Source: an uncultured Gemmatimonadales bacterium
GTDB taxonomy: Bacteria > Gemmatimonadota > Gemmatimonadetes > Gemmatimonadales > GWC2-71-9
Assembly (NCBI GenBank): GCA_963762545.1
Contig: CAVXLC010000003.1
Location: 130,967 to 194,966 of the forward strand
Direction: 5' to 3'
DNA: 64,000 nucleotides
The first letter of the stretch is position 1. Every line of letters starts with the position of its first letter. Made by a program: the position numbers and the translations under genes. The notes under the pieces are model-generated. The model saw nothing but the letters and a program-made list of their open reading frames with translations. It was not told where the DNA came from and did no database searches. Positions 21,736 through 40,740 of this stretch are shown here, in pieces.

Positions 21736-21835
21736 CGCCGCGTCCCCAACAAGCGTCCATCGCCTTCTTCAATCACCGGGCTCATTGGACTTCTCCTTGG
21801 TGTCGGATCCGAACCGGGTCGAGTGCGGCATCCCC

Positions 21836-24325
21836 TCACGGCTCTTCGCCGATGGGCATGCCGGGAGGGGGCGTGAAGGGCGGCGGCAGGACGGCCGGAT
21901 CCCAGGGCCGCTCCAGGAATCTCCGGATATCGGAGGCGAGCAACATCAAATGGGCGGTTCCCTCCCCTGCGCCCGCGAGCGTGGCCGCGCCGGGCGCGGG
22001 CAGCCCGGCCATGAAGGCCCGGAGCTTCATCTGGGCGATCGCCCGGACTTCCGGGCTCCGCGCCGTCTGGGCCAGCCCCATGAGGCGGTCCACCAGCACC
22101 CGCTGCACTCCGCGCCCGATCGCGGCCAGGTAGGTGTCGGGGGATTCCGGGCGTCCCGCTTTGAGGGCGTTGTCGATCACTTCGCCGAGGCCCGGCAGGC
22201 TCGGGTCCAGCGCGTGCTGCTGCACCAGCCGCGCCGCTCGCTCCGGATTGAACACCAGCTGGGCCACCATGTCGGCAGCGGCCTCGGCGGGGCTGATCGC
22301 GTCGAACACCGGATCGGTCACCCGCGCGAAGAGCTCCCGGTGCTCGGGAAATCCCGACGGCCGGGGAGGAATCGTGGCCAGGAGCTTTCGTGGAATGGCC
22401 AGTTCCTTCGGGTTGAGCGTGGCCAGCACCGCCGAGAGGGCTTTTCGCTGCTCCGCCGCGGGCACGGAATGGAGTGGTTCCTGGCCGTCGCCGCGGACGG
22501 CGTAGGTGTAGTACTGTCCGCCCACGACCTTGACCGCCGCCTCGACCTGGTACCGGTGATGCAGGTAGAGCGGGACCAGCACTTCCTCCAGCAGCGCGAG
22601 CGGCTCACCCAGCTTGATGGCCTCCACGCCGAAATGGTCCAGCGCCGCCCGGCGCACCTGCATGACCCGGCCGAGCTCCACCGTCGGGTCGGCTCCGTTG
22701 TCCCACAGGTGGGTGTTCGGGTGGGCGCTGCCGAAGGGGCGGGCATCCTGGTCGGTCAGGAACAGGAGTCCCTTGGCGCGGGCCCCGGCGAGCAGCGCAT
22801 CGAGGGCCTTGGGTTCGTCGGTGCCGGGTGGAAAGTCGGTGTAGCCGAACTTGATCGCCTCCTTGTCCCAGGCCCCGATGCCGACCGCATAGGCATCCGA
22901 CAGGTCAATGCCGCCGCCGGGCGCCAGTTTGACGACCGGATGCGGGTAATCCATCACCGACGCCCGGTCGGCTGCGCTGCTGAGGTAATTATGCTGCAGC
23001 CCGAGGGTATGGCCTACCTCGTGCGCCGCGAGTTGGCGTAGCCGCGCCAGCGTCATCGCCTCCGCCGCGGTGGCCTTCTCGGTGCCGGTCTTGTAGGGAC
23101 TGAGCAGCCCTTCGGCCAGCATGTAGTCCTGCCGGGCCCGCTCCGAGCCCAGGGTCACGTGGCCCTTGATGATTTCCCCGGTACGCGGATCGGTGACGGT
23201 GTTGCCGTAGCTCCAGCCCCGGGTGAACCGATGCACCCACTGAATCATGTTGTAGCGTACGTCGAGCGGATCGGCGCCCTCGGGGAGCAGCTCGACGCGG
23301 AACGCATCCTGGTAGCCCGCCGCCTCGAAGGCCTGATTCCACCACCGGGCGCCCTCGAGGATGGCGCTGCGGAACGGCTCGGGCGCGCCCCGGTCCAGGT
23401 AATACACGATCGGCTGCACCGGTTCCGATCGCGCGGCCGCGGGGTCCTTCTTCTGAAGCCGATGCCGTGCGAGGAGCTGGTGAACCTGGTCCACCCCGAG
23501 GGGCGAAGTGAAATCCATGTAGTCGGTGGAGTAGAACCCGGAGCGCGGGTCGAACCGGCGCGGGGTGTAGCCCGGCCCCGGCAGCTCCACCAGGGAGCTG
23601 CGCTCCCGCATGGTGAGCGCTTCCGGCGTCGGCGCCACGTCGCGAACCCAGGGCCCCGGATTGTCGCCGACGAAGGTGAGGGTGACCTCGATCTCCGTGT
23701 TCTTGGGGAAGACCTTGGTGCGCTCCGGATCCACCGCGCTGCGCGAGGCATCCACCCGGTAGCTGCCCTGACGGGTGCGGGACAGCGTCGAGATGACGTC
23801 ATGCACGTCCCGCACCACGAAGTCCGTGGCGTCAACCAGCACGGTCCCGTCGGTTTCGGCTTCGATCTTGAAGCCCCACAGGGTGGAGATCGCGAACGAC
23901 TCCTCCACCCCGCGCCGCGCTGCCAGGCTGGTATCGCTGGAGCGGAATCCATAGTTGGGCTGCACCATCAACAGCTTGTTGCCGATCCGCTGGAAGCGTA
24001 CGATGCGCTCCCGCCCGATCTGTCCGCGGTCGATGCCGATATCGTTGGAGCCGAGGCCGGTAGGCGCACCGGTGATGTAGAGCAGCTCCGCACCCAGCCG
24101 GGCGGGAGCCAGCTCCATCCAGAGCTTGCCGCTCGCCGGATCCCAGTAGAGCGGCACGAAGCCGTCCCGCTTGTCGAGACCCCGGGTCTTCTCGGCGATG
24201 CTCGGCAGCGCCTGGGCATGGAGGGCGGATCGCGGCGCCAGCATGACGGCCCCGGCGAAGACACAAACCGCGGCGAGTTGGTGGATCGGCCGGACGGAAC
24301 CTGAAATGGGGGAACCCGGGCGCAT
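21836..24325 (-). CDS. secreted zinc-dependent metalloprotease (DUF5117/DUF4953-type)
   Basis: 829 aa with a signal peptide (AAVCVFAGAVMLAPRSALHAQA). Zincin motif AAHEVGHTLGLQHNY. The N-terminal LYWDPASGKLWMEL block is typical of this large secreted protease family. Confidence 0.85.
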   Translation of the reverse strand: MRPGSPISGSVRPIHQLAAVCVFAGAVMLAPRSALHAQALPSIAEKTRGLDKRDGFVPLYWDPASGKLWMELAPARLGAELLYITGAPTGLGSNDIGIDRGQIGRERIVRFQRIGNKLLMVQPNYGFRSSDTSLAARRGVEESFAISTLWGFKIEAETDGTVLVDATDFVVRDVHDVISTLSRTRQGSYRVDASRSAVDPERTKVFPKNTEIEVTLTFVGDNPGPWVRDVAPTPEALTMRERSSLVELPGPGYTPRRFDPRSGFYSTDYMDFTSPLGVDQVHQLLARHRLQKKDPAAARSEPVQPIVYYLDRGAPEPFRSAILEGARWWNQAFEAAGYQDAFRVELLPEGADPLDVRYNMIQWVHRFTRGWSYGNTVTDPRTGEIIKGHVTLGSERARQDYMLAEGLLSPYKTGTEKATAAEAMTLARLRQLAAHEVGHTLGLQHNYLSSAADRASVMDYPHPVVKLAPGGGIDLSDAYAVGIGAWDKEAIKFGYTDFPPGTDEPKALDALLAGARAKGLLFLTDQDARPFGSAHPNTHLWDNGADPTVELGRVMQVRRAALDHFGVEAIKLGEPLALLEEVLVPLYLHHRYQVEAAVKVVGGQYYTYAVRGDGQEPLHSVPAAEQRKALSAVLATLNPKELAIPRKLLATIPPRPSGFPEHRELFARVTDPVFDAISPAEAAADMVAQLVFNPERAARLVQQHALDPSLPGLGEVIDNALKAGRPESPDTYLAAIGRGVQRVLVDRLMGLAQTARSPEVRAIAQMKLRAFMAGLPAPGAATLAGAGEGTAHLMLLASDIRRFLERPWDPAVLPPPFTPPPGMPIGEEP

Positions 24326-24394
24326 GAGAAGTCTCCAGCGGGAATTTCGAGCGGGAGTCCGGAATCTGGCCGCCCCGCTCCGGTTCCGCCAGAG

Positions 24395-25348
24395 TTATCG
24401 CGCCGGCGGGCCGTTCCCGCCGGGGGCGCCGGCGATCAGCTCATCGAGGATCCGGGTGGTGCTCCACCCGGGGTGACGGGCCTGGAGAACCGAGAGCTCG
24501 ACCTCCCTGCATCGCACCTGTTCGGTGCCCGCCCCGCGACAGCTCACCACGACATCCAGCAACGGCGTGCGGGTCGGCGAATCGTCGTCCTCGCCGAATT
24601 GCACCAGAAACACGGCGGTACTTCCCGTCGGGTCGGTGCGAATCCGGCTCGTGATGCTGCTGCCGAAGTGCTCGGCATCCATCGGATGGTTGTGGGCCTG
24701 GAACCATGCCTCGCCCAGCCGCTCATAAGCCTGTCGGGTCGCCGCGATGTAGCTGAGCCGCACCGAATCGTACGGCTCGCCGGGATACACCCGGATGTCC
24801 CGGCTCGTGTGCGGATCCCAGGTCCACAGCTCGGCGGGATGGGCGGCCAGGAAGTGCGGCATGCTCCGGTGATAGAAGATCCGTCCCGACGGCAACAGCG
24901 CCAGCAGCCACCCGTCGAGCGCGGCCAGCGGACGGAGCGCGCGATCCAGCACGATGACCGTCCCCGCCGACGGATTGGTATGGGTGTCCAGGAAGATCTG
25001 GTCCGCGGAATGCTGGACATCCAGGACCGATCCCACCTCCCACGCTGGCGGCGCGGCCCGGCGCCGCTCCAGCGCCGCATGGGTCCAGGCGTTCGTCCGG
25101 CGGTCGAACGCGCTGATCCGCAGCGTGTCCGGCAGCGGGTTCCCATCCGGGCCCAGCGGGGTGAAGGCGATGACGAACAAATCGGGCCAGTTCTCGGCGG
25201 AATAGCTGCCGATCCGGCGGTCCAGGTCGGCGGGGCCCTTCCTCCCGGACGGGACCGGGAACTCATGCAGGATTTCCCGAAGGGTCTGGGCCGGGGCGGC
25301 GCGGGGAAGCGCCAGCACCACCAGGGCCACGGTCCGAAGCCGGATCAA
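24395..25348 (-). CDS. secreted hypothetical protein
   Basis: Preferred start is the TTG at 25348, giving MIRLRTVALVVLALPRAAPAQ (signal peptide), with a GAGGTGAT Shine-Dalgarno about 10 nt upstream. The track's longest ORF starts at 25414. No family recognised. Confidence 0.6.
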   Translation of the reverse strand: MIRLRTVALVVLALPRAAPAQTLREILHEFPVPSGRKGPADLDRRIGSYSAENWPDLFVIAFTPLGPDGNPLPDTLRISAFDRRTNAWTHAALERRRAAPPAWEVGSVLDVQHSADQIFLDTHTNPSAGTVIVLDRALRPLAALDGWLLALLPSGRIFYHRSMPHFLAAHPAELWTWDPHTSRDIRVYPGEPYDSVRLSYIAATRQAYERLGEAWFQAHNHPMDAEHFGSSITSRIRTDPTGSTAVFLVQFGEDDDSPTRTPLLDVVVSCRGAGTEQVRCREVELSVLQARHPGWSTTRILDELIAGAPGGNGPPAR

Positions 25349-25532
25349 AGGGCCACGATCACCTCGTTGGGGTCTCTCTCCCAACGAGCCGCCTCGCCAC
25401 CAGGTTTCCTCCATTCCGCTCGCCGGCCCCGAGCCGGAGCGCCCGACCGATCCGGCCGGCGAGCCGTTCGGGAACCTCGATCCGGTCGAGTCGCGCCGTG
25501 ACCCCTTTCAGGACGGTTACCATGGTAGAATC

Positions 25533-26483
25533 GTGGCAGTCTCAACCGATAGCGCGGACCCGGGCCGGCAGGTTCCCGAGGCCCTGCCTACCGGGAACCC
25601 TCCCCCCCGGAGTAGCGTTGACGACGTTCCCATGACCCGGACCCTGACGAATCCGCCCAGTCCACTGGACGCCGTGATCACCCCGCCGATACGCCCGAGG
25701 GTCCGCGGCGGCCGCGTGCGCGCGGGACTCAAGATCTACGCGGCCGGATTCTGGACCGCGATCCTGTTCAGCACCTGGGCGCTGGGCAGTATCGGCACGC
25801 TGCTCTTTCCGCGAGCCAGGGTGCGCTGGCGGCACCGGGTGGTGCGCACCTGGGCCCGGGCCGTCTGTAACATCCTGGGGGCCCGGATTCAGATGTCCGG
25901 CACCCCGCCGCGGGCCCCGTTCTTCCTGGCGGCCAACCACCTGACCTACGTGGACATCCTGCTGCTGTACACGAGGGTGGACGGGGTATTCATCGCCAAG
26001 CGGGACATGCGGCATTGGCCGGTGCTGGGGCCCCTGGCTCACCTGTTCGGTACCATCTGGGTCAAGCGCGAGGTGCGCCGCGACGCCGTTCGCGTACTGG
26101 ACCTGATCGATGAGTCGATTGCCCGCGGCGACGGCGTCATCCTCTTTGCGGAGGGAACCACCTCGGCTGGAAATGCGTTGCTGCCCATGCGACCCGCCCT
26201 GTTCGACTGGGCGGCCCGCGAGCAGTATCCGGTGCACTACGCGGCCCTGACCTACCGCACCGATCCGGACATTCCGACTCACCTGGTGGTCGGCTGGTGG
26301 GGAGCGATGCCGTTCGTGAGCCACCTCTGGACCCTGTGCCGCATCAGGCGGTTCGACGCCCTGCTCGAGTTCGGGCCCGAAGCGATCGTCGCGCCTACTC
26401 GAGGAGAGCTGGCGGCCCGAGTCCAGCAGGCCATTGCGGCCCGCTTCGTTCCAATGGTGAGCACCGAAAGGCTCATGGCATGA
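25533..26483 (+). CDS. lysophospholipid / 1-acyl-sn-glycerol-3-phosphate acyltransferase family protein
   Basis: FFLAANHLTYVDILLL is a (N)Hx4D acyltransferase block I variant, and ILFAEGTTSAG is block III. There is an N-terminal hydrophobic segment. The start is uncertain; the ATG at 25632 (MTRTLTNPP) is also possible. Confidence 0.8.
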   Translation: MAVSTDSADPGRQVPEALPTGNPPPRSSVDDVPMTRTLTNPPSPLDAVITPPIRPRVRGGRVRAGLKIYAAGFWTAILFSTWALGSIGTLLFPRARVRWRHRVVRTWARAVCNILGARIQMSGTPPRAPFFLAANHLTYVDILLLYTRVDGVFIAKRDMRHWPVLGPLAHLFGTIWVKREVRRDAVRVLDLIDESIARGDGVILFAEGTTSAGNALLPMRPALFDWAAREQYPVHYAALTYRTDPDIPTHLVVGWWGAMPFVSHLWTLCRIRRFDALLEFGPEAIVAPTRGELAARVQQAIAARFVPMVSTERLMA

Positions 26484-26500
26484 CCGCCGCCCCGCGCTAG

Positions 26501-27217
26501 GTGTGCACGCTGAGCTGGACCCCCCTCCCGGACGGATATGCCCTCGCCATGAACCGGGACGAGCGCCGGACCCGCGCCCGCGGGCTTCCGCCCACCCCGA
26601 CGCTGGTCCGGAACGTTCGAGCCTTGATGCCGACCGACCCCGAGGCCGGCGGGACCTGGGTTTCGGTCAACCAGCACGGCATGACCATGGCCCTCCTCAA
26701 CCGGTACGAGGAGAGCCCCCAGGATCCCGGGGGGAGGTTCACCAGTCGCGGTCTGCTGATCCGGGACATGGGCTGGATGGAGGGACCGGAGGGGGTCGAA
26801 GGGGAGCTTCGTTCCCGGCCGCTCCAACACTTCCGGCCGTTCACTCTCGCGGGGCTGCCGCGGGGCGGGATGCCGCATCTGTTCGACTGGGATGGCCGCC
26901 GGCTCACCCGGTCGGTCGTCCCGGATCCCGGGCTGGTTCGGGCCAGTTCCGGTTCCCATCAGCTCGAGGCGGAACGGGCGCGGGGAGCGCTGTTTCGGGC
27001 CGCCTCGGGAGAGTCCGGCGGGCTCACGGCGGCCACGTTGGAGCAATTACACCGGAGTCATCAGCCGGTCCGTGGCCCAATTTCAATCTGCATGCATCGT
27101 GAAGAGGCAACGACGGTTAGCCTTTCACTAATCACCGTATCTAAGAAGAAGATCTCCATATTTTACGTTGATGGCCCGCCGGGCGAGACGGCCGGGGGCC
27201 TGCTGCATTCCCTATGA
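26501..27217 (+). CDS. NRDE family protein (TANGO2-like, PF05742-type)
   Basis: The GTG start gives M-C-T (N-terminal Cys) followed by the literal NRDE motif (LAMNRDERRTR) and GGTWVSVNQHG. Confidence 0.8.
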   Translation: MCTLSWTPLPDGYALAMNRDERRTRARGLPPTPTLVRNVRALMPTDPEAGGTWVSVNQHGMTMALLNRYEESPQDPGGRFTSRGLLIRDMGWMEGPEGVEGELRSRPLQHFRPFTLAGLPRGGMPHLFDWDGRRLTRSVVPDPGLVRASSGSHQLEAERARGALFRAASGESGGLTAATLEQLHRSHQPVRGPISICMHREEATTVSLSLITVSKKKISIFYVDGPPGETAGGLLHSL

Positions 27218-27350
27218 ACGGGCGACCCGAGCCGATCGGCCTCCTCGGGCGCCATCGCCGGGCACGGCGGCCCCATGCCGACCAGTCTACATTCTCCCCG
27301 GTGGCTGACACCCGCCTCCCTGCCCTGAGCATCGAGAGAGGATCGGCGCG

Positions 27351-28442
27351 ATGAGCGAACCCGAGTGGCACGACCTCGGCCCGGCCGAAGACCTGGCGCG
27401 GGTCCCCCTGCGCCAGCTTGTCATCGACCGGACCCGGATTGCCCTGAGCTGTTCGAACGGCGTATTCGGGGCGATCTCGGGCACCTGCAACCACGCCGGA
27501 GGGCCCTTGGGCGAAGGCCGGCTCGACGGGGAGTACGTCATCTGTCCCTGGCACAACTGGAAGTACCACCGGGTCGGGGGCCAGGGTGAGCCGGGCTACG
27601 AGGACGAGTGCGTGCCGCGCTACGACGTCCGGATCGAAGGCGGGCGGGTGCTGGTGAACCTCGAGGCCGCCACCAAGCGTCACCGCATTCCCCATCCCCC
27701 CCATCCGCTGGAGCGCAAGCTCGAGCGCGCGCCCGGCCCGCTCCGCGTGGCGGGGATTTCCACCACGGCGATGGACGCGGCGAATCCGCGGGTCTCGACC
27801 TCCGACCTGCTGCTCGAGGCGGCGCTCGGCCATGCCGCTGCCGTGAGTCACACCGAGACCCGCCTGATCAAGCTCAACCAGCTCAAGTTCCGGCATTGCG
27901 AGGGATACTACTCCAAGAGCGCCCACGCCTGCACCTGGCCTTGCTCGATTACCCAGATGGACCCGGCCGACGAGATGGACCAGGTGTACGAGGCGATGGT
28001 GCATTGGGCCGACGTCATCCTGGTCGCGACCCCGATCCGCTGGGGCTCGGCCAGCTCGCTCTACTTCAAGATGGCCGAGCGGCTCAACTGCGTGCAGAAT
28101 CAGATCACCATTCGGAACCGGCTCCTCATCCGCGACAAGGTGGCCAGCTTCATCGTCACGGGCGGCCAGGACAACGTGCAGGGCGTGGTGGGCGGACTGC
28201 TCACCTTCTTCGGCGAGCTGGGCTTCCTCTTTCCCCAGTTCCCCTTCATCGCCCACTCGCGCGGGTGGTCGGCGGAGGACATGGAAAACAACGTCCGCCA
28301 GGTGGAGCACAGCACCGACCTGAAGGAAGGGGCCGAGGCGCTGGCGGATCGCGCGATCCAGATGGCGGCGGAGCTGCTCAAGGTTCCGGTCACCCACGAG
28401 CACATGGCCCGCGGCGGCCGCAAGGCGCATCACCTGGCATAG
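27351..28442 (+). CDS. fusion protein: N-terminal Rieske [2Fe-2S] domain + C-terminal FMN-reductase / iron-sulfur-flavoprotein-like (flavodoxin-fold) domain
   Basis: Rieske boxes CNH-x16-CPWH (GTCNHAGGPLGEGRLDGEYVICPWHNWKY). The C-terminal half has the layout RVAGISTTAM...ADVILVATPIRWGSASSLYFKMAERL...FIVTGGQDN, typical of the NADPH-dependent FMN reductase fold, plus a C-x10-C-x3-C cluster (HCEGYYSKSAHACTWPC). A good RBS (GAGAGAGGA) lies upstream. No signal peptide. Confidence 0.85.
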   Translation: MSEPEWHDLGPAEDLARVPLRQLVIDRTRIALSCSNGVFGAISGTCNHAGGPLGEGRLDGEYVICPWHNWKYHRVGGQGEPGYEDECVPRYDVRIEGGRVLVNLEAATKRHRIPHPPHPLERKLERAPGPLRVAGISTTAMDAANPRVSTSDLLLEAALGHAAAVSHTETRLIKLNQLKFRHCEGYYSKSAHACTWPCSITQMDPADEMDQVYEAMVHWADVILVATPIRWGSASSLYFKMAERLNCVQNQITIRNRLLIRDKVASFIVTGGQDNVQGVVGGLLTFFGELGFLFPQFPFIAHSRGWSAEDMENNVRQVEHSTDLKEGAEALADRAIQMAAELLKVPVTHEHMARGGRKAHHLA

Positions 28443-28452
28443 GAGGAAGCGT

Positions 28453-29148
28453 ATGAGCACCGATCGGCGGGAGTTTCTGGGGGCGTTGGTAGGAGCGGGA
28501 CTGGTGCTCGACGGGAGGTCGGTAGGCCGGTACGTCGGTACCGCCCCGGGGACTACCCACCCGCTGACCGACCGACCTCCCGTCGCCCCGGGTGCCGAGT
28601 GGGACGTCTCCTGGACGGCCAGGGTATCCGGCCTGCACCGGGCGGTGTTCGATTCGCCGGAGGTCTCGGAGGGCCTCGGGCTGCTGCGGGCCCTGGTCTG
28701 GATCAAGGACTACGGCGAGGTCTATGGCACCGCCCCCGCGGACATGAGCGCGGTGGTGGTCCTGCGCCACAACGCGATCTGGATGGTGATGAACGACGAG
28801 TTCTGGGCGCTCCACGGGATCGGCGCGGTCACCAAGATCAACGACCCCAGGACCAAGCTGCCCATCAAGCGCAATCCGTTCCTCGGACCGACGCCGTTTG
28901 CCGAGCTGCCCCACGAGGTCGCGGACAACGTGCTCACCACCGTCCTGGGCACCGCCACGGTGCTGGCCTGCAACCTTGCCTTTCAGGATGTCGTAGAGAA
29001 GGTCAAGGCCCACGCCGGCGGCGACGACGCCAAGGCGCGCGCCATGGCCCTCGAACATGTGGTCCCGGGAATCATCCTGCAGCCATCGGGCGTCTTCGCG
29101 GTCACGCGGGCCCAGGAGGCCGGCTGTCAATACCTGCTCGCAAGCTGA
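28453..29148 (+). CDS. Tat-signal protein, paralogue 1 of a three-member family (DsrE/COG1416-like motif order; function unknown)
   Basis: MSTDRREFLGALVGAG is a twin-arginine motif. Shared blocks with the paralogues are RAVFDSP, VVVLRH, MNDEFW, KRNP, VLACNLAF, PGIILQPSGVF and AQEAGCQ. It starts 10 nt after the Rieske-fusion gene. Confidence 0.75.
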   Translation: MSTDRREFLGALVGAGLVLDGRSVGRYVGTAPGTTHPLTDRPPVAPGAEWDVSWTARVSGLHRAVFDSPEVSEGLGLLRALVWIKDYGEVYGTAPADMSAVVVLRHNAIWMVMNDEFWALHGIGAVTKINDPRTKLPIKRNPFLGPTPFAELPHEVADNVLTTVLGTATVLACNLAFQDVVEKVKAHAGGDDAKARAMALEHVVPGIILQPSGVFAVTRAQEAGCQYLLAS

Positions 29149-29159
29149 GAGGATCCTGC

Positions 29160-29819
29160 ATGGCCGACCGGAGGGAATTCCTGGGCACCCTGCTCGCCGC
29201 GGGGGCCGCCGCCCGGGTGGACGGTTTCTCCGAGCCGGCCCCCGCGCCCGACTCGTCCAGCGTGGCATGGCTCAAGCGCATCCGGGGGAAGCACCGCGCG
29301 GTCTTCGACAGCCCGCGCGACGACGTCACCGGGGTCCTCCGGGCCTGGATCTGGCTCAACCAGTGTCGCGGCCTGTTCGCTGCAAAGGCCTCGGACTGTA
29401 CCGCCGTGCTGGTGCTCCGGCATGCCGGGGCCACTCTCGCCATGAACGACGCCTTCTGGGAGCAGTACGAGGTCCCGCTGAGCGGCTCCACCGCCGAGAA
29501 GCCCAACATCCCCAAGCGGAACCCCCAGATGTCGGGCGCGCTCAAGGACGTCGGCGCGAGCCTCCCTACGCCGGCCCGTCCGTGGGCCGTGGGCGCAGGA
29601 CTGGACACCCTGATCGACCGCGGTGGCGTGGTGGTCGTCTGCGAGTTCGCCTTCTGGTACGTCATGTCCCGGGTCATGACCCGCGACAAGGTGGACGAAG
29701 CCCGGGCCCGCGAGGTGGCCATGGGGCACCTGGTTCCCGGCGTGACGCTCGCGCCCTCGGGGTTCTTTGCCCTCGCCGCCTCGCAGGAGCACGGCTGCAG
29801 CTTCGTCACCAACGTCTAG
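29160..29819 (+). CDS. Tat-signal protein, paralogue 2
   Basis: The ATG at 29160 gives MADRREFLGTLLAAGAAA. Shared blocks are RAVFDSP, VLVLRH, MNDAFW, KRNP, VVVCEFAF, PGVTLAPSGFF and SQEHGCS. The upstream part of the listed 406-aa ORF overlaps paralogue 1 out of frame and is rejected. Confidence 0.75.
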   Translation: MADRREFLGTLLAAGAAARVDGFSEPAPAPDSSSVAWLKRIRGKHRAVFDSPRDDVTGVLRAWIWLNQCRGLFAAKASDCTAVLVLRHAGATLAMNDAFWEQYEVPLSGSTAEKPNIPKRNPQMSGALKDVGASLPTPARPWAVGAGLDTLIDRGGVVVVCEFAFWYVMSRVMTRDKVDEARAREVAMGHLVPGVTLAPSGFFALAASQEHGCSFVTNV

Positions 29820-29829
29820 ATCGTATCTC

Positions 29830-30504
29830 ATGCTCGATGACCGCCTGCTGGCCCGAGTGCCCTCGCTGGGCGCGCTGCCGGCGGCGGCCCGCGCGGAGCT
29901 GGCCCGGCGCGGGGTCGACCTCGCATTCCGGCGGGGGGAGTTCCTGTTCCGTGCGGGAGACCCGCCCCGGGGACTCTTCTTCGTGCTGGACGGATGGGTC
30001 CGGGTGATCAATGAGCGCGACGGCCGACGCTATCTGGTGCACGAAGACGGCCCCGGCGCCACGCTGGGCGAGGTACCGCTGATGCTCGGAGGCGGATACC
30101 CGGCGAGCGCCCTCGCGGGCACCGACGTCCGCTGCCTGCTGTTCTCCCGCGCCGCGCTCGACGCCACCATGACCGGCTCGCCGGAAGTGGCCTGGCTACT
30201 GCTGCAGCGGATGGCGGAGCGGGTCCGCACGCTGGTGGGGCGGCTGGAGCAGCGGAGCGCCACCTCGATCCTGCAATCGCTCGCCACTCTCATTCTGGAG
30301 CGGTCGGCGGATGGCGGCCCCGCGGTGACGCTTCCCGCCACGCAGCAGGAGCTGGCCGAGTCCCTCGGCACGGTGCGGGAGGTCATTGCCCGGCAGCTCA
30401 CCGCGCTCAAGCGCGCCGGCGCCATCCGGGCCGCCGGCCGTGGCCGCATCGAGGTGGCCGACCGGTCCAGGCTGATCCAAATGGCGCGGGACGCCCGGGT
30501 GTGA
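29830..30504 (+). CDS. Crp/Fnr family transcriptional regulator (cNMP-binding domain + HTH); no FNR-type N-terminal Cys cluster
   Basis: ATG at 29830. The effector domain includes FRRGEFLFRAGDPPRGLFFVLDGWVRV...GATLGEVPL. The C-terminal HTH is TQQELAESLGTVREVIARQLTALKRAG. Confidence 0.85.
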   Translation: MLDDRLLARVPSLGALPAAARAELARRGVDLAFRRGEFLFRAGDPPRGLFFVLDGWVRVINERDGRRYLVHEDGPGATLGEVPLMLGGGYPASALAGTDVRCLLFSRAALDATMTGSPEVAWLLLQRMAERVRTLVGRLEQRSATSILQSLATLILERSADGGPAVTLPATQQELAESLGTVREVIARQLTALKRAGAIRAAGRGRIEVADRSRLIQMARDARV

Positions 30505-30538
30505 CCTTGGTCGCATCGCCGGAGGTCGCGCATCGGTA

Positions 30539-30556
30539 GGTTGAAGCACCTCAACC
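30539..30556. promoter_or_regulatory. perfect 18-bp palindrome GGTTGAAGCACCTCAACC containing TTGA-N6-TCAA (Crp/Fnr-box-like spacing)
   Basis: Read directly from the sequence. It lies 34 nt after the crp/fnr stop and 12 nt before the ATG at 30569. The half-sites TTGA/TCAA with a 6-nt gap equal the outer bases of the FNR consensus TTGAT-N4-ATCAA. Confidence 0.4.
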
Positions 30557-30568
30557 GGAGTCCCATGT

Positions 30569-31069
30569 ATGACGTGCCGTTCCTGCTCGATTCTGACGCT
30601 GCTCGTGCTGGCGCCGCTGATCTCCACGCAGGCACAAGCCGGCCACGACCACGCCGCCATGCACCACGGATCCGATTCCGGCTTCGCGGCGATGAAGGGC
30701 CGGGGCACGTTGGCCATGGGCGTCGACCAGGACAAATCGACCCATCACTTTACCTCCCTGCCCGACGGGGGCCGGATCGAGCTCACCAGCGACGTGGACG
30801 ACAGCGCGGCCACTGCCGCGATCCGGCAGCACTTTGCCGACATCGAACAGGCCTTTGCCGCCGGAGACTTCAGCATCCCGATGGCGGTGCACGCCCAGGA
30901 CGTGCCCGGCACCGCCGTGATGAAGGCCAAGGCCGCGGCCATTTCCTACACCATGCGCGAACTGCCCCGGGGAGCCGAGCTGCGCATCGTGACCCACGAC
31001 AAGGCTGCCATCGCCGCGGTGCACCAGTTCCTGCTCTTTCAGCGCACCGAGCACCACGCCGGGCAATAG
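30569..31069 (+). CDS. secreted His-rich protein of unknown function
   Basis: The signal peptide MTCRSCSILTLLVLAPLISTQAQA is followed by GHDHAAMHHG. Conserved-looking core: STHHFTSLPDGGRIEL...IRQHFADIEQAFAAGDFSIPMAVHAQDVPG...VHQFLLFQRTEHH. From memory it resembles an uncharacterised family seen in soil bacteria; this is unverified. Confidence 0.7.
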   Translation: MTCRSCSILTLLVLAPLISTQAQAGHDHAAMHHGSDSGFAAMKGRGTLAMGVDQDKSTHHFTSLPDGGRIELTSDVDDSAATAAIRQHFADIEQAFAAGDFSIPMAVHAQDVPGTAVMKAKAAAISYTMRELPRGAELRIVTHDKAAIAAVHQFLLFQRTEHHAGQ

Positions 31070-31081
31070 CGCCGCGCTCCG

Positions 31082-31110
31082 TTGACACCGGGGGCCCCGG
31101 GACCAAGATT
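31082..31110 (+). promoter_or_regulatory. possible sigma70-type internal promoter (TTGACA - 17 nt - AAGATT)
   Basis: A perfect -35 hexamer at 31082-31087, a 17-nt spacer containing the near-palindrome CCGGGGGCCCCGG, and a weak -10 at 31105-31110. It sits about 30 nt upstream of the paralogue-3 ATG. Sequence pattern only. Confidence 0.25.
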
Positions 31111-31141
31111 GCCCTCAGGCGGTCCTACCCGTGGAGGCGGC

Positions 31142-31822
31142 ATGGCCGGTGATCGACGGAGTTTCCTGGGGCGGCTGGCAACCGGAGCGGCGGCGGCGGC
31201 CGGCGCGCTCGGGCTTGAGGCGCGCCGGCTCGAGGCCGAGCCGCGCATCCGGCCGGTGAGCGACGCGTGGGACATGTCCTGGGTCGGCCGCGTCAACGGC
31301 AAGTTCCGCGGAGTGTTCGATTCGCCCAAGATCACCGACGGGGGCGAGATCTGGCGGGCGGCCACCTGGCGAAACCAGGTGATCGAGGTCTACGGGGTGA
31401 AGGACGCCGATGTGAGCCCCGTGCTGGTGATCCGGCACGCCGGCATTCCGCTCGTGATGAACGACGCCTTCTGGGCCCGGCACAACATCGGGAAGAAGCG
31501 CAAGGTGAAGGACCCGATCACCGGCAAGACGGCGGAGCACAACCCGATCGGCCCGAGCGACTGGCGCACGGAGGTCCCGGCCTGGCTGGCCGACTCCTTG
31601 ATTCCCAGGTTCATCGAGCGGGGCGGCATCGTGCTGGCCTGCAACTTCGCGTTCGGCCTGATGGTCCACCTGGAGTCCGAGATCGACAAGGAGCACGCCA
31701 AGGAGGCGCGGGAGCGGGCCATCGGCTATCTCCTGCCCGGTGTCATCCTGCAGCCGTCCGGGTTCTTCGGGTTGCTGGAGGCGCAGCGGGCCGGCTGCCA
31801 GCTCTTCACCGCGGGCGAATAG
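31142..31822 (+). CDS. Tat-signal protein, paralogue 3
   Basis: The ATG at 31142 gives MAGDRRSFLGRLATGAAAAAGA. Shared blocks are RGVFDSP, VLVIRH, MNDAFW, EHNP, VLACNFAF, PGVILQPSGFF and AQRAGCQ. Confidence 0.75.
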   Translation: MAGDRRSFLGRLATGAAAAAGALGLEARRLEAEPRIRPVSDAWDMSWVGRVNGKFRGVFDSPKITDGGEIWRAATWRNQVIEVYGVKDADVSPVLVIRHAGIPLVMNDAFWARHNIGKKRKVKDPITGKTAEHNPIGPSDWRTEVPAWLADSLIPRFIERGGIVLACNFAFGLMVHLESEIDKEHAKEARERAIGYLLPGVILQPSGFFGLLEAQRAGCQLFTAGE

Positions 31823-31829
31823 CGCCGCC

Positions 31830-33122
31830 GTGGACGTCATTCGGGCGTCGATCCCGCTCTTCTTCGCGCTGATCGGCCTCGAGCTGCTGATCGCCCGGCT
31901 CCGGCGGCGCCCGCTCTACCGGCTCGCCGACTCGATCAGCGACCTCTCCTGCGGGATCCTGAGCCAGCTCGCCGGGATCGTGCTGGCGCTCGGTACGATC
32001 GCCCTCTTCGGCTGGGTCTCGACCCACGCGTCGATCCAGCAGATCCTCCCGCTGCCCCTCTGGATCAACCGCCCGCCGGTCACGGCGTCCGGTCTGGACC
32101 TGGCGGCGCTGGCCAGCTGGACCGGCGTCTTTCTCCTCGATGACTTCGCCTACTACTGGATGCACCGCTATTCCCACGAGGTCAACCTGCTCTGGGCCGG
32201 CCACGTCGTGCACCATTCCAGCGAAGAGTACAATCTCACCGTGGCGCTCCGGCAGAGCAGCCTGCACGGGCTCATGAGCTGGCTGTTCTACATGCCGCTT
32301 GCCGTCCTCGGCGTGCCGGTCACCATGTGGGTCATTTGCCATGCGCTCAACCTGGTCTACCAATTCTGGGTCCATACCCGCGCGGTGAATCGGCTCGGCC
32401 CGCTGGAGGCGGTGCTCAACACCCCGTCCCACCACCGGGTGCACCACGGGGTGAACCCCCAATACCAGGATCGCAACTACGCCGGGGTCCTGATCGTCTG
32501 GGATCGCCTGTTCAAGAGTTTCGAGCCCGAGGTGGCGCCACCGGTGTACGGGATCACCAAGCCGCTCCGGAGCTGGAATCCGGTGCGAGCCAATCTGCAC
32601 GTCTTCGGGGAGATCTGGACCAACGCGCGCGCGGCGCGTACGTGGCGCGACCGGTTCCGCTCGGTGTTCGGGCACCCCGGCTGGCGCCCGCCCGAACTGG
32701 GGCCGCCGGTCATCCCCATGGCGGTTTTGGAGGACACCTTCCAGAAGTACGAGCCGCCGGTCCCCGGCGCGCTCAAGTTCTATGCGCTGATTCAGTTCGT
32801 CGTGACGTTGGCCGGCGCGGTGGCGCTGCTCGACGCGGCGGCGCGGATGCCGCCGGCGTCCTCCCTCGCCGCCGCGTTCTACGTGGTGCTCTCCCTGGCC
32901 GATATCGGCGGAATTCTGGAGGCGCGGAGCTGGGCGGGTCTCACCGAGGTGATGCGCTTGGTGGTGCTCGGCGGCGTGGCGGCGGTGCTGCTCGGCTCCG
33001 GAACGGCGCCGGCGTGGCTGCTCGCGGCGGCGGCGGGTTTCGCGGCCATCTCGTTGGTCTGGGTGGTTCGGCTCCGGCCCCTGCTCACGAGCTCTGATCC
33101 GAGGGCCATCGTCGCGATGTAA
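31830..33122 (+). CDS. fatty acid hydroxylase superfamily (sterol desaturase / alkylglycerol-monooxygenase-like) membrane di-iron enzyme with C-terminal multi-TM extension
   Basis: The GTG at 31830 lies 7 nt after the paralogue-3 stop. His boxes HRYSHE, HVVHHSSEEYN and SHHRVHHGVN are present, followed by IVWDRLF. The last ~130 aa form extra hydrophobic helices. Confidence 0.85.
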   Translation: MDVIRASIPLFFALIGLELLIARLRRRPLYRLADSISDLSCGILSQLAGIVLALGTIALFGWVSTHASIQQILPLPLWINRPPVTASGLDLAALASWTGVFLLDDFAYYWMHRYSHEVNLLWAGHVVHHSSEEYNLTVALRQSSLHGLMSWLFYMPLAVLGVPVTMWVICHALNLVYQFWVHTRAVNRLGPLEAVLNTPSHHRVHHGVNPQYQDRNYAGVLIVWDRLFKSFEPEVAPPVYGITKPLRSWNPVRANLHVFGEIWTNARAARTWRDRFRSVFGHPGWRPPELGPPVIPMAVLEDTFQKYEPPVPGALKFYALIQFVVTLAGAVALLDAAARMPPASSLAAAFYVVLSLADIGGILEARSWAGLTEVMRLVVLGGVAAVLLGSGTAPAWLLAAAAGFAAISLVWVVRLRPLLTSSDPRAIVAM

Positions 33123-33138
33123 GCGGCGACCGCCTCTC

Positions 33139-35697
33139 ATGCTCGAACTCAGAACTCTCGGCGCGGCGGACCTCCGAATCCGGGATGGCGCCGAGCTGAC
33201 CGCGGTGGTGCAGCAGCCCAAGCGCTTTGCCCTCCTCGCCTACCTGGCCATCGACGCACCGTCCCGATTCGTCCGTCGCGACACGCTGCTGGGGTTGTTC
33301 TGGCCCGAGCTGGACAGCGAGCACGCCCGCGCCGCCCTTCGGCGCGCGTTGTACTTTCTCCGGCGGTCCACCGGCGACGGAGTCGTGGTCGGCCGGGGAG
33401 AAGAGGAAGTCGGCGTCGCGCCCGGCTCGCTGTGGTGCGACGCGGTGGCGTTCCGCGAGGCGGTCCGCGCGGGCAACCCGGCCGGCGCGCTGGAGCTCTA
33501 TCGGGGGCCCCTGCTCGAAGGGCTCTACGTGGCGGGCGCTCCCGACGCGCAGGACTGGCTCGACCGGGAACGCGCCCGCCTCAAGGAGCTGGCGCAGGAC
33601 GCGGCGCGCACGCTGGCCCGCCACGCGCCTGACGCCGACGCTCAAACCCGCTGGGCCCGCCGCGCGCTGGAGTTCTTCGAGGAAGATGAGGAGATGCGCG
33701 CCCTGCTGGCGCCCGCGCGACTCCCGGCACCGGTTCGAGTCGCGGTGGCACCGTCGGGACCCGCGCCGCCCTCGGATCCGAACCTGCTGGCGGTGTGTCC
33801 CTTCGCCGTGCGGGGCGGCCCGGGCCTGGCATTTCTTTCCGAGGGCCTGGTGGACCTGCTGGCCACCAAGCTCGACGGCGCGGGCGACCTCCGGATCGTC
33901 GAGCCCCGCCTGGTGCTGTCCGGTGCCGGCAGCCCCGGCGACGGATGGAGCCCGGACCGGGGACGCGAGCTGGCCGAACGGACCGGCGCGAGCGCCTTCG
34001 TCCTGGGAAGCCTGGTGGAGGTGGCCGGACGACTCGAGGCCGGCGCCGCACTGCACGATCGGGACGGATCGGTCATCGCCCGGGTGGAGAGCCGTGCCGG
34101 GGGTGAGGCCGGGCTCTTCGAATTGGTCGACGAGCTGGCGAGGCGCCTGCTGGCCGCGCGACCCGCCGCCAGCGGCGACCGCCTCGCCCGCCTCGCCGCG
34201 CTCACGACCGAATCGCTGGCGGCGCTCAAGTGCTGGCTCGACGGCGAGCGCGCCTTCCGGCTGGCGCGGCATCTCGAAGCGGCCGACGCGTTCCAGCGCG
34301 CCACCGACGCCGATCCCTCCTTCGCGCTGGCCTGGTACCGGCTGGCGGCCGCCTTCGCGGCGAGCGCGCTGATCGGCCCGGCGCGGGGGGCCTCGGCCCG
34401 CGCGTTCGATCACCGCTCCCGCCTGAGCGAGCACGACCGCCTGCTGCTGGAGGCGCAACACGCCTGGATCACCGGCCAGAGCGCCGAGGCGGAGCGGCGC
34501 TATGCGGCCCTGGTGACCGGGTGGCCCGAGAGTCTGGAGGGCTGGTTTCTCCTGGGCGACGTGCAGTTTCACAGCAATCCGTACCGGGGCAAGCGGGTTG
34601 CCCTGGCGCGCCCGGCGCTCGAGCGCGCCCTGGCCCTGGACCCGTCCCACCTCGGCGCGCTCACCCAGCTCGCCCGGCTTGCGGCCCACGAGGGGCGGAC
34701 CGGAGACCTGTCCGCCCTGGCGCGCCGCGCCCTCGAGGCGAGTCCCGCCGGCGACCAGGCCCTCGGGCTGCGCGCGCTCGCGGCCTTCACTATGGGCACC
34801 GACGCCGAGCGCGCGGCAGCCGGCCGGGAGCTGGCCGGCGCGCGGGGCCTCACCATCGCGCGGACGTTTTCGGATGTGGCGCTCTATTCCGGGAACCCGG
34901 ATCACGCCGAGCGGCTGGGCCGCGAGCTGTTCGCCTCGGCGCGCTCCGAGGAATTCCGCGCCTTCGGGCACGTCACCCTGGCCCACCTGGATCTGGCGCG
35001 GGGCCGCACGGTCGAGGCGTTCGATCGGCTCCGGGAGGCGGAGCGGATGGAGCCGGCCTGGGGGCTCACGGTGCGGGGGCTGGTCGCCTCGCTGGCGTTC
35101 CTGCCGCCCCGTCACGACGAGCGCGCCAGGGCGCGCCGCGACCTGCTGGCTTGGGACCCGGCTGGTGCGCGGCCGGCGGTAGCGGTGCCGCTGGCCTTTC
35201 ACAATGAGCTCCAGGCGCACTTCCGGGGCTTCCTGCTGGGATTGCTGGCCGTGCGGGACGGCGATCTCTCCGCCGCCTCCCTCGAGATCGAAGCCCTGGC
35301 CGAGCTGCCGGTGCCCGAGGGGGCCGGCGCCCTGCTCGAGCACCTGGAGCGGACCCTCCATGCCGAGCTCCTCCTCGCGCGCGGGTTCGCGGGAGACGCC
35401 CTCGCTGTGTTGGAGCAGGGACGGCTGGACGTCTGGTTCCAGTACGCCGTTGCGTCGCCGTTCTTCGCCGGCACGTTCGAGCGGTATCTCCGGGCCGACC
35501 TCCTGGCCCGCGCCGGCCGAGTTCCCGAGGCCATCCGGTGGTGGGAGTCGATCGCCGAGCGCACGCCGTTCGAGCTGCCGTTCCAGGCGCCTTCGCTGCT
35601 TCGCATCGGGCAAGCCTGGGAGGAGCTCGGCGACGACGCCCGGGCCGGCGAGGCCCGGCGACGGGCCCGGGTGTTGTGGGGGGACGGGCCCAAGTAG
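33139..35697 (+). CDS. SARP/BTAD-type transcriptional regulator with long TPR-like C-terminal region
   Basis: 852 aa. The N-terminal winged-helix segment (KRFALLAYLAIDAPSRFVRRDTLLGLFWPE...ARAALRRALYFLRR) is followed by a BTAD-like segment (WCDAVAFREAV...ELYRGPLLEGL...DWLDRERARL). The helical-repeat tail ends in IRWWESI. Confidence 0.8.
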   Translation: MLELRTLGAADLRIRDGAELTAVVQQPKRFALLAYLAIDAPSRFVRRDTLLGLFWPELDSEHARAALRRALYFLRRSTGDGVVVGRGEEEVGVAPGSLWCDAVAFREAVRAGNPAGALELYRGPLLEGLYVAGAPDAQDWLDRERARLKELAQDAARTLARHAPDADAQTRWARRALEFFEEDEEMRALLAPARLPAPVRVAVAPSGPAPPSDPNLLAVCPFAVRGGPGLAFLSEGLVDLLATKLDGAGDLRIVEPRLVLSGAGSPGDGWSPDRGRELAERTGASAFVLGSLVEVAGRLEAGAALHDRDGSVIARVESRAGGEAGLFELVDELARRLLAARPAASGDRLARLAALTTESLAALKCWLDGERAFRLARHLEAADAFQRATDADPSFALAWYRLAAAFAASALIGPARGASARAFDHRSRLSEHDRLLLEAQHAWITGQSAEAERRYAALVTGWPESLEGWFLLGDVQFHSNPYRGKRVALARPALERALALDPSHLGALTQLARLAAHEGRTGDLSALARRALEASPAGDQALGLRALAAFTMGTDAERAAAGRELAGARGLTIARTFSDVALYSGNPDHAERLGRELFASARSEEFRAFGHVTLAHLDLARGRTVEAFDRLREAERMEPAWGLTVRGLVASLAFLPPRHDERARARRDLLAWDPAGARPAVAVPLAFHNELQAHFRGFLLGLLAVRDGDLSAASLEIEALAELPVPEGAGALLEHLERTLHAELLLARGFAGDALAVLEQGRLDVWFQYAVASPFFAGTFERYLRADLLARAGRVPEAIRWWESIAERTPFELPFQAPSLLRIGQAWEELGDDARAGEARRRARVLWGDGPK

Positions 35698-35761
35698 TAG
35701 CCTTCGGGTGCCGGGTCGCGGATCGCCGCGCACCGCTTAAGTCCCTTTCTGGAGGATCACG

Positions 35762-40053: not shown

Positions 40054-40101
40054 GCCCGGACCTCGATCCCTGAGTCAGGTCTACTTCATCGGGAGAATAT
40101 C

Positions 40102-40653
40102 ATGGCTAACACAGCCGTATTCGGTATCTACAGTTCGCGAGGTCAGGTCGAGATGGGCGTGGATCATCTCCGGGCGGCCGGTTTCCGCGCCCAGGATATT
40201 TCGATCCTTTTCCCCGAGAACGTGGGAACCAAGGACCTGGCCCACGAGAAGCACAGCAAGGCCCCCGAAGGCACGACCGCGGGCGTCACGTCCGGCGCGG
40301 TCATCGGTGGTACCCTGGGCTGGCTCGCCGGTATCGGCGCGCTGGCCATTCCCGGCGTCGGGCCGTTCATCGCCGCCGGACCGATCATGGCGGCGCTGAG
40401 CGGTGCCGCGGTCGGGGGCGCGGTCGGGGGCGTGGCCGGCGCCCTCATCGGGATGGGCATTCCCGAGTACGAGGCCAAGCGGTACGAGGGGCTGGTGCGG
40501 AAAGGCGGCATTCTGCTCTCGGTGCACTCCGATAGCCACGAGTGGACCAAGCGGGCCAAGGACATTCTCGAGAACACCGGCGCGACCGAGGTCGCCTCCA
40601 CGTCCGAGGCCAAGGGTGACTACGCCAACGCGAACCGGCCGGGCCGAGTCTAG
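40102..40653 (+). CDS. YflT-like general stress protein with central glycine-zipper membrane segment
   Basis: The N-terminal AVFGIYSSRGQVEMGVDHLRAAGFRAQDISIL fits the YflT/GSP17M-type domain pattern. The central segment is GAVIGGTLGWLAGIGALAIPGVGPFIAAGPIMAALSGAAVGGAVGGVAGALIG. The C-terminal part is GIPEYEAKRYEGLVRKGGILLSVH. The family name is from memory. Confidence 0.7.
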   Translation: MANTAVFGIYSSRGQVEMGVDHLRAAGFRAQDISILFPENVGTKDLAHEKHSKAPEGTTAGVTSGAVIGGTLGWLAGIGALAIPGVGPFIAAGPIMAALSGAAVGGAVGGVAGALIGMGIPEYEAKRYEGLVRKGGILLSVHSDSHEWTKRAKDILENTGATEVASTSEAKGDYANANRPGRV

Positions 40654-40683
40654 CGCCCGGAGGACGTCACGACCGAGAACGAG

Positions 40684-40720
40684 AAGGCGGGTCCGGAATC
40701 GGGCCCGCCTTTCGTGTGTT
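40684..40720. terminator. intrinsic terminator between convergent genes
   Basis: AAGGCGGGTCC-ggaatc-GGGCCCGCCTT forms an 11-bp stem with one G-U pair, followed by TCGTGTGTT. It lies between the stress-protein stop (40653) and the pilin stop (40741). Confidence 0.55.
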
Positions 40721-40740
40721 CGAGGAGTCCAACGGGGAGA

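Follow-up and report, generated by a model that had tools for sequence, protein, structure and literature searches.

What do three related and apparently exported proteins, encoded within a few kilobases of one another, do in an uncultured Gemmatimonadales bacterium? The question is raised by a 64,000-nucleotide stretch of contig CAVXLC010000003.1 (hereafter the window), which has a guanine plus cytosine (GC) content of about 70% and whose close homologues carry the names Gemmatimonadales or Gemmatimonadaceae. Its + strand holds open reading frames (ORFs) of 231 amino acids (copy 1, 28453–29148), 219 amino acids (copy 2, 29160–29819) and 226 amino acids (copy 3, 31142–31822), each for a protein with a twin-arginine translocation (Tat) signal and a predicted DsrE/COG1416 fold. 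The explanation that we favour, with a probability of about one in two for it as a whole, is that the copies are periplasmic DsrE-fold cysteine proteins, related to thiosulfate dehydrogenase (Tsd), that act on inorganic sulfur.

Pairwise BLASTP comparison of the copies gave 34–40% identity with E-values of 1e-34 to 5e-49, far beyond chance, and they are therefore clear paralogues. A preliminary description of this DNA had reported the three ORFs with their common Tat motifs and a series of ordered sequence blocks, all of which were present in the alignment: R(A/G)VFDSP, V(V/L)V(L/I)RH, MND(E/A)FW, (R/H)NP, C(N/E)(L/F)AF (within 'VCEFAF' in copy 2), PG(I/V)xLxPSG(V/F)F and Q(E/R)xGC. The three-way alignment placed DRR(E/S)FLG at residues 4–10 of each copy (DRREFLG in copies 1 and 2, DRRSFLG in copy 3), followed by 9–17 mainly Ala/Gly/Leu residues. 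This arrangement agrees with the Tat-substrate consensus (S/T-R-R-x-F-L-K and a hydrophobic stretch) in all three copies, although the Tat-signal model TIGR01409 scored above its cut-off for copy 3 only (19.3 versus 16.7 bits). The reported twin-arginine motif also proved to be a property of the family, RRxF being present in 392 of 393 aligned homologues, and we infer that the copies are soluble proteins exported in a folded state through the Tat pathway. A Shine–Dalgarno-like (GGAGG-like) motif precedes each copy. They had further been assigned to a single operon, and they do share one strand and short gaps, but copy 3 is parted from copy 2 by a Crp/Fnr-family regulator gene (29830–30504) and by the gene of a 166-amino-acid secreted protein (30569–31069).

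The family to which these proteins belong is found mainly in Gemmatimonadota and is large, numbering no fewer than 1,255 clusters at 50% identity. Among 5.8 billion proteins searched there were 236 relatives (clusters at 90% identity), whose names read Gemmatimonadales/Gemmatimonadaceae, 'hypothetical' or 'twin-arginine translocation signal domain-containing protein'; an exhaustive profile search of 1.84 billion representatives (clusters at 50% identity) returned 1,255 at E ≤ 1e-3 and 685 at E ≤ 1e-10. The precomputed Pfam entry was '-' for nearly all homologues, and many relatives bear the IMG label 'intracellular sulfur oxidation DsrE/DsrF family protein'.

Conservation within the family centres on one cysteine. 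The first Cys (Cys167 in copy 3 numbering) was present in 412 of 412 homologues. Both cysteines had been described as invariant, which they are among the window copies and in an alignment of 42 sequences; in the wider family, however, the C-terminal Cys219 was found in 372 of 403 homologues (92%), the other 31 having V, A, L or I, and it is both lost in the Tsd-like branch and aligned with Trp in COG1416 proteins, as set out below. W111 and N134 were invariant or nearly so among the aligned homologues, Q215 (399 of 409) and G218 (404 of 408) came close to this, and R/K56, D60 and R98 were strongly conserved; conservation was weaker for H99 (256 of 421) and S206 (281 of 411).

The fold was addressed by an AlphaFold2 model of copy 3, built from the 42-sequence alignment and with a mean predicted local distance difference test score (pLDDT) of 86.8. 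In the model a signal helix and a disordered linker lead into a short helix (46–50), a strand (55–61), a helix (67–84), a second strand (91–97) and short helices; residues 120–160 have little regular structure and are followed by a strand (163–167), helices (168–195), a strand (202–204), a helix (207–216) and a last strand (220–222). Searched with Foldseek against the PDB, the model matched ST0148 best (2pd2; E 6e-4, template modelling (TM) score to target 0.71). The other top matches were a designed cage, which presumably uses a DsrE-type fold as its scaffold, the Swol_2425 'sulfurtransferase DsrE' (3pnx), 3mc3 and 2qs7, the last two being structures of DsrE3A and DsrE2B homologues (PMC4175335). 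All five are thus DsrE-like or built on that scaffold, with probabilities of 0.96–1.00 and TM scores to target of 0.51–0.71. Model and matches together support the three-layer alpha/beta DsrE fold, and Cys167, where strand 163–167 meets helix 168–181, lies at the strand-3/helix-3 junction that is the canonical DsrE active-site position.

Sequence profiles pointed the same way once they had been confined to the core. Full-length profiles searched against PDB sequences gave spurious matches alone (GAPR-1 and a calpain-like protein). A profile of 22 diverse members, from which the signal and linker (residues 1–51) and residues 120–158 had been removed, ranked MTH1491 (1l1s) first (E 0.015) and ST0148 (2pd2) second (E 0.073) among 177,635 PDB sequences. 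Strand 1 ('hRaVFD') aligned with COG1416 'YRVVFHIDE', the Cys region ('GvivlaCnvA') with 'GVRFCACSNT' and the C-terminal block ('llpGvilvPsGvvAvarAqekGcayv') with 'LLEGVDVVSSGVGHIVRRQTEGWAYI'. Cys167 fell on the Cys of 'FCACSN' in 1l1s and of 'VGCEN' in 2pd2, that is, after strand 3 at the N-terminus of the next helix (ACxN), and the second Cys fell on a Trp in both MTH1491 and ST0148. The preliminary description had likened the block order to that of COG1416 proteins, with an insertion of about 50 residues, and had recommended profile and Foldseek searches against DsrE/COG1416 structures; these returned DsrE-like top matches with MTH1491 and ST0148 foremost, and because the core alignment matches the blocks named there it lends support to the fold, to the equivalence of the first Cys and to an insertion, although one of about 40 residues (about 120–160) with the conserved motif K-x-x-D-P-x-T-x...N-P. 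Small cytoplasmic single-domain proteins of about 110 amino acids these are not: at 219–231 amino acids they have a Tat motif, a linker and the insertion. The model thus supports a mature protein composed of a COG1416/DsrE-type alpha/beta domain, the insertion and an N-terminal W-D-x-S-W helix.

A possible function was suggested by NCBIfam model NF052225 ('thiosulfate dehydrogenase', 259 positions), the only curated model that matched all three copies: copy 1 with 19.0 bits (E 7e-4), copy 2 with 25.0 bits (E 1e-5, residues 72–214) and copy 3 with 16.8 bits (E 3e-3). We do not regard these matches as noise because the scores climb stepwise from the window through Gemmatimonadota relatives (40 bits for P0256, 65 for P0249 and 66 for P0388) to Acidobacteriota, with 76–91 bits for P0414, P0419 and P0416 and 96 bits for a protein of Acidipila rosea, the best of the relatives; E-values of the intermediates reach 7e-26 and 2e-27. 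With homology detectable over most of the protein length, common ancestry of the family with NF052225, however remote, is supported at the sequence level.

NF052225 itself probably models the Tat-signal Tsd (AFE_0042) of Acidithiobacillus ferrooxidans, judging from its name and its 259 positions, from gene context and from the absence of haem motifs in the proteins that it matches. The alternative that it describes TsdA-type enzymes was discarded, as the SoxA/TsdA-like cytochrome of locus L022 (see below) does not match it. A cofactor-less thiosulfate dehydrogenase of A. ferrooxidans was reportedly described by Kikumoto in 2013. AFE_0042, annotated as a Tat pathway signal protein, has a mass of about 25 kDa; its gene adjoins that of a periplasmic solute-binding protein (AFE_0043) and doxDA, and the species has a second Tsd copy, AFE_0050, that is 76% identical to it (PMC2754497, PMC6335251). 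The window copies, too, are predicted to carry a Tat signal and to have a mass near 25 kDa. It had been stated beforehand that no Tat-exported DsrE-like family has been characterised; the family in the window is indeed itself uncharacterised, but the statement needs qualifying in view of its remote homology to a thiosulfate dehydrogenase.

The branch of P0416, which provides this bridge, belongs to Acidobacteriota/Terriglobia and was found by a genome scan to include Acidipila rosea DSM 103428 and Edaphobacter aggregans DSM 19364; homologue searches and genome scan reached as far as Acidobacteriota and not Acidithiobacillus. Comparison of the Gemmatimonadota and Acidobacteriota profiles by hhalign gave a probability of 98.8% (E 8e-17) over 219 columns, the aligned region taking in the insertion motif KVxDPxTGKxAxxN. 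In the Acidobacteriota branch the first Cys is kept ('SCH') and the second lost. Gene context was compared by local hidden Markov model searches of 166 fetched loci (denoted by L numbers). In 43 of the 70 Acidobacteriota loci with enough downstream sequence, the gene after the Tsd-like one encodes an SBP_bac_11 binding protein, for which sulfate/thiosulfate CysP/Sbp proteins and ModA were the best models, and the gene after that a dihaem cytochrome containing a SoxA/TsdA domain; upstream of the Tsd-like gene, 27 of 65 loci had a fused cbb3-like oxidase gene. This context echoes, by analogy, the AFE_0042/AFE_0043/doxDA arrangement of A. ferrooxidans, and suggests a SoxYZ-like carrier role with loading by the SoxA/TsdA-type cytochrome. 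The cluster occurs in L005–L083, for example in L022 (5199–10511, Acidipila rosea) and L078 (Edaphobacter aggregans); its oxidase is a fusion of COX1, FixO and cytochrome c, and its Tsd-like gene is labelled 'hypothetical', 'secreted protein' or, in IMG, DsrE/DsrF family protein. From its gene content it looks like an undescribed thiosulfate-oxidising module.

Several points weigh against a role of the window copies in sulfur chemistry, or at least against reading it directly from these matches. Since the copies score 17–25 bits with NF052225, whose equivalog cut-off is 300 bits, they are not, by sequence, Tsd equivalogs. For the catalytic mechanism of A. ferrooxidans Tsd the literature examined offers no rationale, structural or mechanistic. 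The sequence link to COG1416 (E 0.015) is weak, and no copy has a Pfam match at E ≤ 1, the DsrE/DsrF-like family PF02635 included. The 64-kb window contained neither sulfur-metabolism genes nor c-type cytochrome motifs, nor did the sequence up to 4 kb from each Gemmatimonadota homologue, and doxDA, periplasmic binding protein, rhodanese and cytochrome genes, which would recall the A. ferrooxidans neighbourhood, were likewise missing from the window and from the surroundings of the Gemmatimonadota homologues. The neighbours that are conserved are instead a Rieske–flavin mononucleotide (FMN) reductase gene and lipid-type genes (OlsA-like, and OlsE/alkylglycerol-monooxygenase-like).

With these points taken into account, we infer from sequence a periplasmic, Cys-based thiosulfate/tetrathionate or sulfane chemistry in Gemmatimonadota, in which export, substrate, covalent chemistry and oligomeric state would be as follows. 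A sulfur anion in the periplasm (thiosulfate, tetrathionate or polysulfide) would be attacked by Cys167 or loaded onto it, and the resulting Cys-S-thiosulfonate or persulfide would be resolved by a second substrate molecule or by a partner. In the window copies the C-terminal ends of strands 1–4 bear, directly or at a neighbouring position, Arg56, Asp60, Arg98, His99, Asn168 and Ser206, which would suit an anion pocket around Cys167. Such an adduct is formed by DsrE3A, the Cys of which reacts with tetrathionate to give Cys-S-thiosulfonate (PMC4175335). The three copies would most likely function as separate homo-oligomeric isoforms.

The rival explanations start from the gene neighbourhood. 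Upstream on the + strand are genes for an OlsA-like lyso-ornithine-lipid acyltransferase (25533–26483; a Pfam match, the NCBIfam OlsA models giving 127 and 89 bits, below their cut-offs), a TANGO2-like protein (26501–27217, also by Pfam) and a fusion of a Rieske [2Fe-2S] domain with an NADPH-dependent FMN reductase (27351–28442). The fusion protein has 363 amino acids and no signal peptide (Pfam Rieske 1.3e-11, FMN_red 1.2e-8), and its Rieske part resembles the soluble ferredoxins of oxygenase systems (BphF, CarAc and TodB). Directly after copy 3 comes the + strand gene of a membrane di-iron protein of the fatty acid (FA) hydroxylase family, OlsE- or alkylglycerol monooxygenase (AGMO)-like (31830–33122; FA_hydroxylase 1.5e-27, AGMP_C 6e-9, the OlsE model at 65 bits below its cut-off). 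The Rieske–FMN protein would be a self-contained reductase, possibly for this downstream hydroxylase, which would be its most economical partner. The three copies are thereby embedded in a cluster that looks to be of ornithine-lipid type, with all Ols scores below equivalog cut-offs.

The strongest rival, because this adjacency is conserved, is that the DsrE-fold proteins assist, from the periplasm, a system that modifies membrane lipids, and that their role is unrelated to inorganic sulfur. The Rieske–FMN reductase would feed electrons to the FA-hydroxylase/AGMO-like enzyme, and on the outer side of the membrane the exported proteins would handle its substrate, its product or a redox by-product. 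Gaps in the cluster argue for this, several being 8–11 nucleotides: the Rieske–FMN gene ends 11 nucleotides before copy 1, and the hydroxylase gene has its GTG start 8 nucleotides past the copy 3 stop. So do the oxygenase-ferredoxin type of the Rieske domain and the lipid-type genes upstream, the OlsA-like and TANGO2-like pair being kept in L084–86, L090, L102 and L142 (L124 has the acyltransferase and no TANGO2 match) and an OlsB-like Acetyltransf_5 gene standing upstream in L086 (1–1385). A copy-3-type gene was followed within a few bases by an FA-hydroxylase gene in 17 of the 67 Gemmatimonadota loci with downstream sequence; FA hydroxylase was the commonest neighbour family (19 loci including the window), with the Rieske–FMN gene a neighbour in 10 loci including the window. 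The order Rieske–FMN, one or two copies, hydroxylase is kept down to about 47–50% identity (L102, L124, L129 and L142). Against this, about three quarters of the loci have a solo family member with unrelated neighbours, and the families that recur beside such paralogues are unrelated ones only (amidohydrolase, FecR, protein kinase, MacB/FtsX, DUF6526, helicase and aldose epimerase). The universal Cys and the homology to thiosulfate dehydrogenase point to sulfur, and we know of no precedent that links the DsrE fold to lipid chemistry.

The conserved order may itself mean less than it appears to. Synteny between L102 (1–19173) and the window (21800–35700) runs beyond the cluster, from a Met-zincin metalloprotease gene to a tetratricopeptide repeat (TPR) regulator gene, with the DsrE-fold genes only about 50% identical, so the order may stem from common descent within a single phylum and not from function. 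The gene order of these Gemmatimonadota is unusually constant, which makes adjacency a poorer guide to function, and part of the order may be inherited chromosome structure rather than functional coupling. On balance we consider the lipid explanation unlikely, and the nesting of the DsrE-fold genes between reductase and hydroxylase genes is conserved and unexplained.

The same loci bear on whether the three paralogues form one hetero-oligomeric periplasmic sulfur relay, as had been proposed by analogy with DsrEFH/TusBCD. DsrE-family proteins are typically oligomeric, as in DsrEFH/TusBCD and the trimeric MTH1491, the window copies lie on one strand with short gaps, and many loci have two or more paralogue types together, copy 3 being accompanied by copy 1 or by copy 2. 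Three arrangements were seen, however. In L124, L129 and L142 the order is Rieske–FMN, copy 1, copy 3, hydroxylase, the copy 1 orthologues (62–64% identity) following the Rieske–FMN gene. In L090 and L091, with copy 2 orthologues of 62–66% identity, it is Rieske–FMN, copy 2, Crp, the 166-amino-acid protein, copy 3, hydroxylase (in L086 without Crp), and the window type with both copy 1 and copy 2 recurs in L084 and L085. Copy number is therefore one to three per locus in differing combinations (1+3, 2+3, 1+2+3), solo genes make up most of the homologues, and copy 3 is set apart from copies 1 and 2 by two genes, one of them for a regulator. In DsrEFH/TusBCD the set of subunits is fixed, the subunits have diverged and the catalytic Cys survives in some of them only, DsrF and TusC having lost it; in the window no copy has lost any conserved residue, the active-site Cys included. 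Because the whole motif set is kept while copy number varies, separate homo-oligomeric isoforms are favoured over a hetero-complex, and the proposed relay now seems quite improbable.

Because of these arrangements, copy 2, the Crp/Fnr gene and the gene of the 166-amino-acid protein appear to behave as one inserted module. The regulator (cNMP_binding 1.7e-18, HTH_Crp_2 3.7e-15, no N-terminal Cys cluster) is present in six related loci. The gene of the 166-amino-acid protein was found in eight, always upstream of copy 3 and between it and a copy-2-type gene, with or without Crp; copy 2 orthologues always occur with it and usually with Crp. The protein has a His-rich N-terminus (GHDHAAMHHG) and several invariant His residues, which suggest that it may bind metal; it had no Pfam, NCBIfam or PDB match, and a single-sequence structure model reached a pLDDT of 39. 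L086, besides being without Crp and copy 1, has a copy 2 orthologue (6516–7361) that is frame-shifted after 'SRVMSRDTIEEA' and has lost its PGV..PSG..GC end, the result of either pseudogene formation or an assembly frameshift.

A third possibility is that the Tat signals serve to carry the signal-less Rieske–FMN protein into the periplasm by hitch-hiking, to give an iron–sulfur flavoprotein oxidoreductase with DsrE-fold substrate-binding subunits. Partners with cofactors are the classic Tat hitch-hikers, as in hydrogenase and dimethyl sulfoxide reductase, the DsrE-fold proteins have no obvious cofactor that would need Tat, and the 11-nucleotide gap to copy 1 fits. The Tat motif is, however, all but universal in the family while most members have no Rieske–FMN neighbour, and L101 and L131 have a copy and the hydroxylase without that gene; moreover, an NAD(P)H-type FMN reductase domain would lack a donor in the periplasm and the Rieske domain resembles cytoplasmic oxygenase ferredoxins, which makes this very unlikely. 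That the two cysteines form a redox-active pair, the proteins being periplasmic thiol–disulfide oxidoreductases of a new fold, is highly improbable despite the invariance of both in the window copies and the 42-sequence alignment, given that the second is V, A, L or I in 31 of 403 homologues, aligns with Trp in MTH1491 and ST0148, is missing from the Tsd-like Acidobacteriota branch and some Gemmatimonadota members and, as modelled, begins the last strand after a crossover helix, probably at the opposite sheet end from Cys167. The Trp alignment and these replacements point to Cys219 as a residue probably buried in the core, rather than a redox partner.

Other features of the window were noted in passing. 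ARAGORN called a tRNA-Arg(CCT) of 94 nucleotides inside the copy 1 coding sequence (28574–28667), a false positive to judge from Rfam, which gives no tRNA there even at E ≤ 10; weak hairpin-type (microRNA precursor) matches on both strands at 28501–28591 suggest only a GC-rich inverted repeat. A promoter and terminator scan was uninformative in DNA of 70% GC. An 882-amino-acid antisense ORF (33085–35733, − strand) fully overlaps the gene of an 852-amino-acid TPR/SARP-like regulator (33139–35697, + strand); it is a shadow ORF typical of 74% GC DNA and should not be annotated. At 40100–44100 the GC content falls to 58–66% beside a tRNA-Met gene (44025–44098, − strand), in a segment with genes for a YflT/ActD-like stress protein and a SnoaL/DUF4440 protein and, on the − strand, for a type IV pilin-like protein with an N-methylation motif (40741–41388) and a GDSL-lipase-like protein (42000–43109), and this may be an acquired islet. 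Otherwise, beyond the surroundings of the copies, the window holds housekeeping genes.

The window proteins, then, are not a new class but an uncharacterised, phylum-scale branch of the DsrE/COG1416 fold in a periplasmic, Tsd-related form. The family is large in two dominant soil phyla, Gemmatimonadota and Acidobacteriota, and its members are publicly labelled 'hypothetical' or, misleadingly, 'intracellular'; the copies could be annotated as putative exported DsrE-fold Cys proteins distantly related to Tsd. If the link to Tsd holds, the cofactor-less thiosulfate dehydrogenase type of A. ferrooxidans has a DsrE/COG1416 fold with one essential Cys, which points to covalent thiosulfonate chemistry that can be tested at a single residue, and soil heterotrophs may possess an additional route of thiosulfate/tetrathionate turnover. 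A bolder proposal, and one we hold to be rather unlikely, is that the superfamily (the Gemmatimonadota family, the Acidobacteriota branch and A. ferrooxidans Tsd) is the periplasmic DsrE-fold counterpart of SoxYZ, a covalent Cys carrier of thiosulfonate or sulfane loaded by SoxA/TsdA-type cytochromes or other oxidants. Were it true, a Sox-independent periplasmic route of sulfur oxidation would be common in soil bacteria, coupled in the window lineage also to a Rieske–flavin reductase and a membrane di-iron hydroxylase, and the carrier could be the missing partner of the orphan soxCD genes reported in Gemmatimonadetes metagenome-assembled genomes (PMC6704655).

Among known systems, SoxYZ is comparable by functional analogy alone. 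It is periplasmic, carries thiosulfonate or sulfane on a single Cys and is loaded by a SoxA-type cytochrome, and the Acidobacteriota branch has a gene for a SoxA/TsdA-domain cytochrome at the second position downstream, after the binding-protein gene; its fold is unrelated, however, the window proteins lack the GGCGG swinging arm and the window contains no Sox genes. DsrEFH/TusBCD belong to the same fold superfamily and are also encoded as several paralogues close together, although their subunits are diverged, have the Cys in some alone, are cytoplasmic and work with DsrC/TusE/TusA, whereas the window copies all keep every motif, vary in number and are predicted to be exported. The COG1416 proteins MTH1491 (1L1S) and ST0148 (2PD2) share the alpha/beta fold (TM score to target 0.71) and the colinear motifs VF-D/H in strand 1, Cys after strand 3 ('ACxN') and C-terminal 'PGV..PSG......Q..G.xY'. 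They differ in being cytoplasmic proteins of about 110 amino acids without an assigned function and in having Trp in the last motif where the window proteins have Cys; the latter add the Tat signal, the linker, the W-D-x-S-W helix and the insertion of about 40 residues, and are missed by the Pfam DsrE models.

Closer in chemistry is DsrE3A of Metallosphaera cuprina, whose structural homologue is 3MC3. DsrE3A is cytoplasmic, has a Cys-X7-Cys motif, lacks the insertion and works with TusA and Hdr-like proteins, but it too has the DsrE fold, its active-site Cys occupies the equivalent place in the topology, and the reaction of this Cys with tetrathionate (PMC4175335) is the chemistry proposed here for the window copies. 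The system nearest by descent would be A. ferrooxidans Tsd, provided that NF052225 represents it. The window proteins have an additional C-terminal Cys, their loci are without a doxDA, rhodanese, binding-protein or cytochrome neighbour, and their host belongs to a neutrophilic soil-type Gemmatimonadota lineage, whereas A. ferrooxidans is an acidophilic chemolithotroph. Both, however, are Tat-signal proteins of about 25 kDa when mature (PMC2754497, PMC6335251), are linked by full-length homology via the Acidobacteriota branch, and are duplicated, Tsd as AFE_0042 and AFE_0050 (PMC6335251).

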